Positions 1 through 5,150 of a stretch of DNA of 5,268 bases are shown in pieces. The stretch comes from a virus (Duplodnaviria > Heunggongvirae > Uroviricota > Caudoviricetes). A model generated the notes under the pieces. The model did no database searches, was not told where the DNA came from, and worked only from the letters and a program-made list of their open reading frames with translations. The first letter of the stretch is position 1. Each line of letters begins with the position of its first letter. Location of the stretch: the IMG/VR virus record IMGVR_UViG_2681813234_000003; one strand, 5' to 3'. The position numbers were made by a program, and so were the translations under genes.

Positions 1-1967
<1,967 letters not shown>

Positions 1968-1987
<20 letters not shown>

Positions 1988-3299
1988 TCTCCCGCATATT
2001 GCCAGCATGGCTTTTAATGAGCCGCTGATGCTTGAATCCGCCTATGCGCGGGTTTTCTTTTGTGCGCTTGCAGGCCAGCTTGGGATCAGCCGCCTGACGG
2101 ATGCAGTATCCGGCGACAGCCTGACTGCCGGAGAGGCACCCGCGGCGCTGGCGTTATCCGGTGATGATGACGGACCACGACAGGCCCGCAGTTATCAGGT
2201 CATGAACGGCATCGCCGTGCTGCCGGTTTCCGGCACGCTGGTCAGCCGGACACGGGCGCTGCAGCCGTATTCGGGGATGACCGGTTACAACGGCATTATC
2301 GCCCGTCTGCAACAGGCTGCCAGCGACCCGATGGTGGACGGCATTCTGCTCGATATGGACACACCGGGCGGGATGGTGGCGGGAGCATTTGACTGTGCTG
2401 ACATCATCGCCCGTGTGCGAGACATAAAACCGGTATGGGCGCTGGCAAATGACATGAACTGCAGTGCAGGTCAGCTGCTTGCCAGCGCCGCCTCCCGGCG
2501 TCTGGTCACGCAGACCGCCCGGACAGGCTCCATCGGCGTCATGATGGCTCACAGTAATTACGGTGCTGCCCTGGAGAAACAGGGCGTGGAAATCACGCTG
2601 ATTTACAGCGGCAGCCATAAGGTGGATGGCAATCCCTACAGCCATCTTCCGGATGACGTCCGGGAGACACTGCAGTCCCGGATGGACGCAACCCGCCAGA
2701 TGTTTGCGCAGAAGGTGTCGGCATATACCGGCCTGTCTGTGCAGGCTGTGCTGGATACCGAGGCTGCAGTGTACAGCGGTCAGGAGGCCATTGATGCCGG
2801 ACTGGCTGATGAACTTGTTAACAGCACCGATGCGATCACCGCCATGCGTGATGCACTGGATGCACGTAAATCCCGTCTCTCAGGAGGGCGAATGACCAAA
2901 GAGACTCAATCAACAACTGTTTCAGCCACTGCTTCGCAGGCTGACATCACCACCGTGGAGCCTGCGAAGGAGGGCGAAAACGCCAGCGCGGCGCAGCCGG
3001 ATGTGAACGCACAGATCACCGCAGCGGTTGCGGCAGAAAACAGCCGCATTATGGGGATCCTCAACTGTGAGGAGGCTCACGGACGCGAAGAACAGGCGCG
3101 CGTTCTGGCAGAAACCCCCGGAATGACCGTGGAAACGGCCCGCCGCATTCTGGCCGCAGCACCACAGAGTGCACAGGCGCGCAGTGACACTGCGCTGGAT
3201 CGTCTGATGCAGGGTGCACCGGCACCGCTGGCTGCAGGTAACCTGGCATCTGATACCAATAAAGAATTACTTAATACACCTGAAGCTTTACCGGTATAA
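1968..3299 (+). CDS. C: Head maturation protease gpC (443 aa; serine protease N-terminal domain fused to a scaffold-like C-terminal region)
   Basis: GTG at 1968-1970 is preceded by GAGGAGGAG at 1955-1963 and gives MTAELRNLPHIASMAFNEPLMLESAYARVFF..., matching the lambda gpC N-terminus as I recall it. The track ORF 1821..3299 is the same frame extended to an upstream GTG with no Shine-Dalgarno. The product is 4 codons longer than the 439 aa I recall for lambda. The putative catalytic serine sits in N-C-S-A-G at codon 166 (nt 2463-2465). Confidence 0.9.
2682..3299 (+). CDS. Nu3: Scaffolding protein gpNu3, nested in frame within C and sharing its C-terminus (205 aa if the start is 2682)
   Basis: The in-frame ATG at 2682-2684 (MDATRQMFAQKV...) is codon 239 of C, the same offset as the annotated lambda Nu3 start by my recollection of lambda coordinates. 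The start is uncertain: this ATG has no good Shine-Dalgarno, whereas a downstream in-frame ATG at 2892 has a strong one. Confidence 0.6.
   Translation: MDATRQMFAQKVSAYTGLSVQAVLDTEAAVYSGQEAIDAGLADELVNSTDAITAMRDALDARKSRLSGGRMTKETQSTTVSATASQADITTVEPAKEGENASAAQPDVNAQITAAVAAENSRIMGILNCEEAHGREEQARVLAETPGMTVETARRILAAAPQSAQARSDTALDRLMQGAPAPLAAGNLASDTNKELLNTPEALPV
2882..2894 (+). promoter_or_regulatory. Strong internal Shine-Dalgarno (AGGAGGG) plus in-frame ATG inside C/Nu3
   Basis: AGGAGGG at 2882-2888 is followed 3 nt later by ATG at 2892-2894, which is in the C/Nu3 reading frame (codon 309 of C). Initiation here would give a 135-aa C-terminal product. Confidence 0.35.
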
Positions 3300-3308
3300 G
3301 AGGCAGTT

Positions 3309-3641
3309 ATGGCGACAAAAGAAGAGTTTAACCATTACCAGCCGCTGGGTAACAGTGATCCGGCTCATACAGCAATTGCGCCTGGCGGATTGAGTGCGAA
3401 AACGCCTGCAATGACCCCACTGATGCTGGATGGCACTACCCGTAAGCTGGTTGTGTGGGATGGCACCACCGACGGTGCAGCCGTTGGCATTCTGGCGGTT
3501 GCTGCTGACCAGACCAGCACCACACTGACGTTCTACAAGTCCGGCTCGTTCCGTTATGAGGATGTGCTCTGGCCGGAGGCTGCCAGCGACGAGACGAAAA
3601 AACGGACCGCGTTTGCCGGAACGGCAATCAGCATCGTTTAA
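3309..3641 (+). CDS. D: Head decoration protein gpD (110 aa)
   Basis: Supplied ORF 3309..3641. The C-terminal part (...[59 protein letters not shown]) is essentially the lambda gpD sequence as I recall it, while the N-terminal third carries several substitutions. AAGAGG at 3298-3303 lies 5 nt upstream of the ATG. Confidence 0.95.
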
Positions 3642-3658
3642 TCTTCCCCTTCATCAAC

Positions 3659-3683
3659 AAAGGCCGCCTGTGCGGCTTTTTTT
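3659..3683 (+). terminator. D-E intergenic hairpin with U-tract (terminator-like; possibly an attenuator or RNA-stability element)
   Basis: AAA (3659-3661), stem GCCGC (3663-3667), loop CTGT, stem GCGGC (3672-3676), then TTTTTTT (3677-3683). This is the geometry of an intrinsic terminator, and the A-tract/T-tract flanks make it symmetric. Confidence 0.4.
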
Positions 3684-3696
3684 ATGGAAATAATTT

Positions 3697-4722
3697 ATGT
3701 CTGTATATACAACTGCAGAATTACTGGCATCGACCCAGCATCACTTTAAGTTCGATCCGCTGTTTCTGCGCCTGTTTTTCCGTGAAACCTATCCTTTCAC
3801 CACGGAAAAAGTCTATCTCTCACAAATTCCGGGACTGGTAAACATGGCGCTGTACGTTTCGCCGATTGTTTCCGGTGAGGTTATCCGCTCCCGTGGCGGC
3901 TCCACCTCTGAATTTACGCCGGGTTATGTCAAACCCAAGCATGAGGTGAATCCGCAGATGACCCTGCGTCGCCTGCCGGATGAAGATCCGCAGAACCTGG
4001 CTGACCCGGCTTACCGTCGTCGCCGTATTATTCGGCAGAATATGCTGGATGAAAATCTGGCGATTGCCCAGGTCGAAGAGATGCAGGCAGTTTCTGCCGT
4101 GCTTAAGGGCAAATATACCATGACCGGTGAAGCCTTCGATCCGGTTGAGGTGGATATGGGCCGCAGTGAGGCGAATAACATCACGCAGTCCGGCGGCACG
4201 GAGTGGAGCAAGCGTGACAAGTCCACGTATGACCCGACCGACGATATCGAAGCCTACGCGCTGAACGCCAGCGGTGTGGTGAATATCATCGTGTTTGATC
4301 CGAAAGGCTGGGCGCTGTTCCGTTCCTTCAAAGCCGTCAGGGAGAAGCTGGATACCCGTCGCGGCTCTCATTCCGAGCTGGAGACAGCGGTAAAAGACCT
4401 GGGCAAAGCGGTGTCCTATAAGGGAATGTATGGCGATGTGGCCATCGTCGTGTATTCCGGACAGTACGTGGAAAACGGCGTCAAAAAGAACTTCCTGCCG
4501 GACAACACGATGGTGCTGGGGAACACTCAGGCTCGCGGTCTGCGCACCTATGGCTGCATTCAGGATGCGGACGCACAGCGCGAAGGCATTAACGCCTCTG
4601 CCCGTTACCCGAAAAACTGGGTGACCACCGGCGATCCGGCGCGTGAGTTCACCATGATTCAGTCAGCACCGCTGATGCTGCTGGCTGACCCTGATGAGTT
4701 CGTTTCCGTACAACTGGCGTAA
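3697..4722 (+). CDS. E: Major capsid protein gpE (341 aa, HK97-fold)
   Basis: Supplied ORF 3697..4722, 341 aa. The sequence (MSVYTTAELLAS...FKFDPLFLRLFFRETYPFTTEKVYLSQIPGLVNMALYVSPIVSGEVIRSRGGSTSEF...PDEFVSVQLA) is nearly identical to lambda gpE as I recall it. Confidence 0.96.
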   Translation: MSVYTTAELLASTQHHFKFDPLFLRLFFRETYPFTTEKVYLSQIPGLVNMALYVSPIVSGEVIRSRGGSTSEFTPGYVKPKHEVNPQMTLRRLPDEDPQNLADPAYRRRRIIRQNMLDENLAIAQVEEMQAVSAVLKGKYTMTGEAFDPVEVDMGRSEANNITQSGGTEWSKRDKSTYDPTDDIEAYALNASGVVNIIVFDPKGWALFRSFKAVREKLDTRRGSHSELETAVKDLGKAVSYKGMYGDVAIVVYSGQYVENGVKKNFLPDNTMVLGNTQARGLRTYGCIQDADAQREGINASARYPKNWVTTGDPAREFTMIQSAPLMLLADPDEFVSVQLA

Positions 4723-4726
4723 TCGT

Positions 4727-4740
4727 GGCCCTTCGGGGCC
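4727..4740 (+). other. E-FI intergenic stem-loop with UUCG tetraloop
   Basis: GGCCC (4727-4731), TTCG (4732-4735), GGGCC (4736-4740), starting 5 nt after the E stop and followed by ATTTTCTCTC. The stem is a perfect 5-bp GC stem; the downstream U-tract is interrupted, so it is more likely an mRNA structural or stability element than an efficient terminator. Confidence 0.35.
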
Positions 4741-4763
4741 ATTTTCTCTCTGTGGAGGAGTTC

Positions 4764-5150
4764 ATGACGAAAGATGAACTGATTGCCCGTCTTCAGGAGC
4801 TGGGTGAGCAACTGAACCGCGATGTCAGTTTGACGGGAACGAAAGAAGAACTGGCGCTCCGTGTGGCAGAGCTGGAAGAGGAGCTTGATGACACTGCCGA
4901 TCAGGATACCCCTATCAGCCCGGAAAATGCGCTGACCGGACATGAAAATGAGGTTGTATCAGCGCAGCCGGATACCGTGACTGATACGGCTGCTCTGGTC
5001 ACGGTCGTGGCACTGGTGACGCTGCATACTGATGCACTTCACGCCACGCGGGATGAGGCTGTGGCATTTGTGCTGCCGGGAACGGCGTTCCGTGTCTCTG
5101 CCGGTGTGGCAGCCGAAATGACAGAGCGCGGCCTGGCCAGAATGCAATAA
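4764..5150 (+). CDS. FI: DNA-packaging accessory protein gpFI (128 aa)
   Basis: ATG at 4764 is preceded by GGAGGAG at 4754-4760 and gives MTKDELIARLQELGEQLNRDVSLTGTKEELALRVAELEEELDD...AEMTERGLARMQ, matching lambda gpFI as I recall it. The track ORF 4725..5150 starts at an upstream GTG and would run through the E-FI hairpin, so the shorter start is preferred. The product is about 4 codons shorter than the 132 aa I recall for lambda. Confidence 0.88.
   Translation: MTKDELIARLQELGEQLNRDVSLTGTKEELALRVAELEEELDDTADQDTPISPENALTGHENEVVSAQPDTVTDTAALVTVVALVTLHTDALHATRDEAVAFVLPGTAFRVSAGVAAEMTERGLARMQ

Follow-up and report, generated by a model that had tools for sequence, protein, structure and literature searches.

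A conserved, predicted intrinsic terminator between the head decoration gene D and the major capsid gene E of a lambda-like phage

In textbooks, the late operon of a lambda-like phage is a single transcription unit, and Q keeps terminator hairpins from folding in the exit channel of RNA polymerase. According to a 2020 genome preprint, the terminator-shaped hairpins found in the late operons of these phages have no established purpose. One of them, situated between the head decoration gene D and the major capsid gene E, is already annotated in several phages. In HK629 (JQ182735 5911–5931) and 434 (OL657227 6100–6120) it is labelled 'rho-independent terminator', and in HK629 it is the sole terminator annotated among the structural genes. 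A variant with the same stem is annotated as a terminator in N15 (NC_001901 5980–6004, as 'putative'), mEp237 and HK225. The records of the lambda reference (J02459) and of Escherichia phage Perceval (OV696612) leave the D–E hairpin unannotated.

The DNA analysed in the present study, referred to in its full length of 5268 bp as the window, contains the head genes of a lambda-like phage in one block. It shares 99.7–100% identity with Perceval and, over the D–E region, approximately 90% with lambda. The hairpin and the run of seven Ts that follows it are identical in sequence to those annotated in HK629 and 434, while N15 and mEp237 have the same stem and a different loop. In all of these annotated lambdoid phages the element occupies the same position as in the window, between genes for an HDPD and a Phage_cap_E protein and at the same spacing from the ATG, and there is no structural difference between them. 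The window differs from the annotated relatives in its Shine–Dalgarno sequence, GGA rather than GGGA, and in the codon after the T-run, ATG rather than ACG; the 434 record annotates GGGA, the homologue of the GGA of the window, as the ribosome-binding site (RBS). The D–E hairpin is a real but ordinary feature, already known by annotation in close relatives.

The D–E spacer and its late-operon setting

Pfam searches confirmed the gene order on the plus strand of the window, which comprises the portal gene B (386–1987), the protease/scaffold gene C (1821–3299), D (3309–3641), E (3697–4722) and FI (4764–5150). The D ORF encodes 110 aa and matches HDPD (PF02924, 74.9 bits), and the 341 aa encoded by E match Phage_cap_E (PF03864, 235.5 bits). 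Q lies outside the window. In the complete Perceval genome it is located at 44108–44491 and is followed by S, endolysin and Rz; the head and tail genes are on the same (plus) strand as Q and the lysis genes, and are reached across the ends of the linear genome. This is the arrangement of a lambda-type late operon; an earlier note, made from the sequence of this DNA, had placed the D–E site inside an operon that must be read through to reach E, FI, FII and the tail genes. Perceval also carries cargo (22393–25842, 38663–38995 and 44680–45762), which includes a sitABCD iron/manganese transporter, an EmrE-like multidrug transporter and an NmpC-like porin.

The D–E spacer consists of the 55 nt at 3642–3696, between the D stop codon, which ends at 3641, and the E ATG at 3697. 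Its 5' part (3642–3658, plus strand) is a variable, pyrimidine-rich stretch that diverges among lambda, the window and the N15-type phages, including a 12-nt indel. The terminator hairpin, apparent in the sequence, in the predicted fold and in our own scan, begins 21 nt past the D stop codon in the window and is formed on the plus strand by GCCGC (3663–3667), the loop CTGT (3668–3671) and GCGGC (3672–3676). A U-tract of seven residues (T7, 3677–3683) lies directly 3' of the stem, and the A-tract with its G (AAAG, 3659–3662) pairs in the predicted fold with the first four Us of this tail. The folded stem is 9 bp long, because G3662 can form a wobble pair with the first U, and it comprises five G–C pairs, the G–U pair and three A–U pairs around the 4-nt loop. 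The 13 nt between the end of the T-run and the E ATG (3684–3696, ATGGAAATAATTT) form the E ribosome-binding region, in which GGA (3686–3688) is a weak Shine–Dalgarno sequence. The description of the element in the earlier note, with all the coordinates given there, proved exact to the base. The AAA that it places upstream of the hairpin is present (3659–3661), with the small correction that G3662 separates it from the stem.

A short motif is found just 5' of the hairpin, at 3650–3662 (TCATCAACAAAG in the window and TCATCCATAAA(A/G) in the N15-type spacers). It is better conserved than the remainder of the 5' spacer in both lambda-type and N15-type sequences (the window and loci L003, L005 and L028–L040), and may be part of the A-tract context of the terminator.

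The hairpin is also supported by RNA folding free energies, the plus strand being more stable than its shuffles. Folded as RNA, the 36-nt element has a free energy of −12.3 kcal/mol (z = −2.2) and the whole spacer one of −15.2 kcal/mol (z = −3.0); 1 of 200 shuffles of the latter folds equally well. For scanning, a strict site was defined by at least 5 consecutive G–C pairs, a loop of 3–8 nt and at least 6 Ts among the 7 bases that follow. By this definition the window has a single site, that between D and E, and only 1 of 1000 dinucleotide-preserving shuffles of the window contained any strict site. The D–E hairpin with its T-run did not arise by chance. The built-in terminator scanner reported the D–E site on the minus strand only, whereas our own scan recovers the plus-strand site. 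The scanner is likely to have missed it because a greedy extension of the stem through A–U and G–U pairs consumes the T-run; since the reading that it missed is the better one, absence of a site from its output is not to be trusted. The GC core itself comprises only 5 bp (−7.7 kcal/mol), and as the stem is so short the efficiency of termination may be only moderate.

Nothing in Rfam reaches its gathering score over the site in the window. The only hit there, to the Leu operon leader (RF00512; 3588–3683), scores 29.8 bits against a gathering score of 50, and its 5' part (3588–3641) lies within the D coding sequence; the match is a resemblance in terminator shape only. A promoter scan found no promoter for E on the plus strand of the D–E spacer. 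A preprint describing RIL-seq of lambda names in its main text LPR2 and 6S, close together near the operon start, as sRNAs of the late operon, and PreS in the early left operon; no sRNA at D–E is named in that main text.

Conservation of the element across D–E spacers

Comparison of the window with lambda, 434 and HK629 reveals an invariant hairpin and T7 within a flanking spacer that varies, as does the start of E. In N15, phi80 and mEp237 (approximately 71% identity) the sequence GCCGC-YTGC-GCGGC-T7 is retained across the 12-nt indel. A wider sample was assembled from loci encoding relatives of E in bacterial genomes and IMG/VR; it holds 67 distinct D–E spacers and reaches down to approximately 38–42% capsid identity. 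Conservation was tallied by structure-anchored tabulation, as MAFFT and RNAalifold misaligned these short, divergent hairpins and yielded a meaningless consensus.

The strict hairpin and T-run are present in 61 of the 67 distinct spacers, where they are built from 12 stems and 36 loops; the stems include GCCGC/GCGGC, GGCCAC/GTGGCC, GAGCC/GGCTC, CCGCGC/GCGCGG, GGCTGCC/GGCGGCC and CCCGC/GCGGG. Among the exceptions, L166 is without a hairpin, L165 has a hairpin without a T-run, the element of L172 is weak and those of L070 and L078 are imperfect. The gene upstream of the spacer encodes HDPD in all eight distant loci tested. When plus-strand terminator-like sites were mapped over 63 distinct loci (233 kb), they fell into two clusters only, one in the 50 nt preceding the E ATG (59 of 63 loci) and the other just past the E stop codon (31 of 63).

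The surroundings of the stem are also constrained in sequence and in distance. Immediately 5' of the GC stem, a purine (A or G) occupies position −1 in 57 of 60 cases and an A position −2 in 51 of 60. Of 58 distinct spacers, 55 have 20 nt or more between the D stop codon and the hairpin (modes 21 and 33 nt), and the T-run ends 12–20 nt before the E ATG in 58 of 61 (mode 13). Two relatives, L194 and L225, have the hairpin farther from the ATG, at 30 and 39 nt, and in both the T-run adjoins the hairpin and not the RBS. The D–E element is evidently kept by selection across the HDPD/Phage_cap_E head module, while the sequences of its stem and loop turn over.

Many of the hits in two groups of loci (L011–L026 and L043–L079) are lambda sequence, with approximately 96–99% capsid identity, on short or very low-coverage contigs. 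They sit in unrelated assemblies, for example of Neobacillus, Kitasatospora, Chromatium and Akkermansia, and one Shewanella contig with lambda sequence is 48,542 bp long at a coverage of 0.96. This looks like contamination with lambda DNA. One such spacer, that of L026 (a 1.5-kb contig at a coverage of approximately 1.6), reads GCCGC-CTGT-GCTGC, a single change that breaks the stem; a sequencing error is more likely here than a natural variant.

Possible roles in termination, translation of E and message stability

The D–E element combines a GC stem–loop, an adjoining U-tract, A-rich upstream bases, an untranslated location and conservation beyond chance, the features of an intrinsic terminator. 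Judged on these features it is a genuine signal of the intrinsic-terminator type, and thus of a known kind. In Perceval, Q precedes the site on the same strand and further essential late genes follow it. The explanation that we favour, with a probability of roughly 0.6, is a joint mechanism in which unmodified polymerase would stop at the element, Q-modified polymerase would read through it and the hairpin would persist in the late mRNA, where it could have further roles. Termination of polymerase unmodified by Q would leave E, FI and the tail genes silent outside the Q-dependent late programme. Q-modified polymerase would pass the D–E terminator, and the hairpin would refold behind it in the read-through late mRNA, probably blocking 3'-to-5' exonucleases and so shielding the upstream Nu3–D segment. 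The U-run would form part of an unstructured, A/U-rich leader, with the hairpin as its upstream edge, letting E initiate efficiently despite its weak Shine–Dalgarno sequence. Of the four roles put forward in the earlier note, that of a read-through terminator is the best supported, by the terminator features, the annotation in relatives, the conservation and the late-operon setting with Q in Perceval; the read-through itself is a step that we infer.

Several details bear on whether the element terminates transcription or is simply a hairpin. A terminator studied in Escherichia coli was almost fully repressed when placed a few base pairs past a stop codon and reached maximal efficiency beyond approximately 30 bp. 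At 21 nt from the D stop codon, the hairpin is far enough away to form without hindrance from the ribosome that terminates there. A 2026 preprint reports that read-through was lowered by an adenosine placed immediately 5' of the hairpin. The U-run, which always begins at the stem and in L194 and L225 stays with the distant hairpin, the bias towards purine and A at positions −1 and −2 and the distance from the stop codon point to termination over a mere hairpin. Against a terminator, some relatives dispense with the element (L166, L165 and L172), and the T-run could be kept for translation, its length tracking weaker Shine–Dalgarno sequences (Spearman 0.61, a correlation confounded by lineage and host GC content). 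In addition, with the lysis genes located upstream in the operon, it is hard to see what is gained by halting unmodified polymerase exactly before E. No 3'-end mapping or read-through measurement of the D–E site was found in the searchable literature, in which a Term-seq study of EHEC is confined to lysogenic conditions.

The weak Shine–Dalgarno sequence that the earlier note pointed out for E, the most abundant virion protein, implies a puzzle. The weakness is borne out, GGA being the only Shine–Dalgarno-like element and the duplex with the anti-Shine–Dalgarno sequence having a free energy of −3.3 kcal/mol for E, compared with −5.8 for D and −5.5 for B. The puzzle is softened, since A and U make up 83% of the initiation region of E and its computed opening energy is below those of the three other genes compared (E 5.9, B 7.4, D 10.3 and FI 13.2 kcal/mol); a weak Shine–Dalgarno sequence therefore does not imply weak translation. 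The further suggestion, that the hairpin modulates translation of E, failed in its testable versions. Sequestration of the Shine–Dalgarno sequence and translational coupling from D to E were rejected, as the upstream spacer pairs with the RBS no better than shuffles do (56 distinct spacers, mean z = +0.67, none below −1). In the minimum-energy fold a lower stem joins UUCAU (3650–3654) with AUGGA (3684–3688), but this pairing is not conserved. The hairpin was likewise rejected as an insulator that keeps the RBS open, because stem variants had no consistent effect on opening energy: five stem-disrupting variants and one compensatory variant gave 4.5–7.0 kcal/mol in silico, against 5.9 for the wild-type.

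Directly after the T-run, an ATG at 3684 opens a 21-codon ORF that runs to 3749, out of frame with E and overlapping its start. Lambda and most relatives have ACG at this position; the window shares its ATG with N15 and a small number of others. As a functional upstream ORF it was rejected for this lack of conservation; with so variable a codon the ORF is probably not functional.

A companion hairpin, found by the scan on the plus strand at 4725–4742 (GTGGCCC-TTCG-GGGCCAT, 7 bp), begins 2 nt past the E stop codon. It is followed by T-rich TTTCTCTCTG, the strong FI Shine–Dalgarno sequence GGAGGAG (4754–4760) and the FI ATG at 4764. With hairpins on both sides of E, the capsid gene is bracketed. 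Most of the 26 representative relatives that were folded have a GC hairpin past the capsid stop codon; its stem takes many forms and a T-run is often lacking, and the post-E hairpin qualifies as a strict terminator in 31 of 63 loci. Across the whole structural region of Perceval, a strong plus-strand hairpin with a T-tail is seen only downstream of the portal gene (within C), of D and of E, and flanking the lom moron on either side. The first of these has a counterpart in the window at 2034–2055, where a terminator-like hairpin (GAATCCGC-CTATGC-GCGGGTTT, then TCTTTT) is found inside the C ORF, 47 nt past the portal stop codon; it is present in Perceval at 4486–4501 and also in HK629 (4297–4312).

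The two conserved hairpins that bracket E come directly after the genes of the two most abundant shell proteins. The D–E hairpin could accordingly have been selected as a barrier to 3' exonucleases, such that the segment ending with D survives longer after endonucleolytic cleavage of the long late transcript and the terminator shape is incidental; if the post-E hairpin did likewise for the E segment, the two most abundant head proteins would be boosted. This would agree with the confinement of strong hairpins in the Perceval and HK629 structural regions to the positions after the portal gene, D and E and around the lom moron, and with the stem–loops marked after the capsid genes of HK97 and P22 and on both sides of the HK97 major tail gene. 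However, the U-tract and the A-tract, both conserved at D–E, would be superfluous in an exonuclease barrier; the post-E hairpin is often without a T-run in distant relatives, and the D–E core, with its five G–C pairs (−7.7 kcal/mol), is weaker than the post-E hairpin (−11.2 kcal/mol). The literature searched yielded no decay data for the D–E region. A role as a 3' stability element, as the earlier note suggested, is plausible; that message stability is the main function of the element we regard as unlikely. A role in translation initiation is harder still to accept, and we consider it distinctly doubtful. Here U7 and the A/U-rich leader would act as an S1-type enhancer offsetting the weak Shine–Dalgarno sequence, and the hairpin would set the upstream boundary of the leader. 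The placing of the T-run within a narrow distance of the ATG in most spacers, the easily opened, A/U-rich initiation region, the longer T-runs beside weaker Shine–Dalgarno sequences and the fact that real upstream spacers pair with the RBS slightly less than shuffled ones are all consistent with such an enhancer. The correlation with T-run length is nevertheless the confounded one given above, the hairpin is retained beside strong Shine–Dalgarno sequences (for example AGGAG in L073, L076 and L173), the T-run tracks the hairpin rather than the RBS in L194 and L225, and disruption of the stem in silico shifts RBS opening inconsistently. Moreover, the 12–20 nt gap between T-run and ATG may be a minimal packing distance, because the gaps between terminator and start codon at other late-operon terminators of HK97 are similar (approximately 5–13 nt). 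Dual use of the terminator could also be imagined as a 'capsid expression cassette', in which the U-tract would serve as an S1-type enhancer for very high translation of the Shine–Dalgarno-poor E and the element would, together with the post-E hairpin, delimit a nuclease-resistant E message. We give this combination little credence; if true, it would mean that late-operon terminators have been co-opted as post-transcriptional elements setting capsid protein stoichiometry.

The element could also act on the amount of transcript. As a partial attenuator effective even on Q-modified polymerase, it would stop a fixed fraction of transcripts after D and so tune the Nu3/D messages against those of E and the tail genes. 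Bacterial operons are known in which partial terminators located between genes fix the ratios of their expression. However, E, just downstream, is needed in the greatest amount, so that cutting its message seems counterproductive, and Q antitermination is processive over the whole late operon. The initiation region of D is more structured than that of E (10.3 versus 5.9 kcal/mol), and D might therefore need more message for an equal yield of protein; partial termination is also among the possibilities listed in the phage L paper. On balance, we judge attenuation very improbable. Lower still is our estimate for a bidirectional terminator, or a barrier to antisense transcription from within E, which we hold to be extremely improbable. 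The terminator scanner does list a minus-strand reading (3676–3663, with the tail CTTTGTTGAT), and there is a weak promoter-like site on the minus strand at 4055–4027. However, the window holds 2 promoter-like sites where 2.4 are expected from shuffles, the minus-strand fold is unexceptional (z = −0.88), and at D–E terminator-like sites are found on the minus strand in 12 of 63 distinct relatives compared with 59 of 63 on the plus strand. The claim of the earlier note that the hairpin is symmetric enough to act on either strand is weak in the light of these counts and of the minus-strand tail, CTTTGTTG. A predicted terminator that is read through by Q-modified polymerase is the reading that we prefer.

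Comparison with other phage terminators and 3' hairpins

Around the capsid gene, terminator-like signals concentrate at two places only, of which the D–E site is one. It persists down to approximately 38% protein identity while its stem sequence turns over, and so offers a well-defined and easily mutated test case for terminators located within operons.

Filamentous phages have a terminator after the major coat gene that stabilizes the 3' end of the mRNA, and in T7 RNase III processing leaves hairpins at mRNA 3' ends. By analogy, the D-ending segment could be longer-lived for having a stable stem–loop behind a cistron whose product is abundant. The RNA ends of the filamentous phage and T7 systems have been mapped, whereas the D–E element is known from its sequence and has a short stem.

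Closer in arrangement are the signals recorded in other late operons. The HK97 record places putative terminators behind the portal and capsid genes and on either side of the major tail gene. That directly after the portal gene may be compared with the hairpin at 2034–2055 of the window, and that before the major tail gene ends 13 nt before the ATG, as does the D–E site. In the P22 record a stem–loop after coat gene 5 is explicitly likened to those of HK97 and lambda, and in phage L a putative terminator/stem–loop is located at the end of the procapsid module. Like the D–E element, the HK97, P22 and phage L sites are GC hairpins with T-rich tails in a single antiterminated late operon, beside genes for abundant virion proteins. 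HK97 and P22 have a hairpin after the capsid gene and none directly upstream of it, whereas the lambda-type arrangement has an extra hairpin that splits D from E.

The canonical lambda terminators tR' (after the 6S RNA) and tR2, which Q or N antitermination overrides, share the hairpin and U-tract architecture of the D–E site, and by analogy the same behaviour would be expected of it, namely to stop unmodified polymerase and to let modified polymerase pass. The operon is switched by tR', which is directly proven by experiment, whereas the D–E site is a predicted terminator. Unlike tR', the D–E site is reached only after several kilobases of the late operon, beyond the genes for lysis and terminase.
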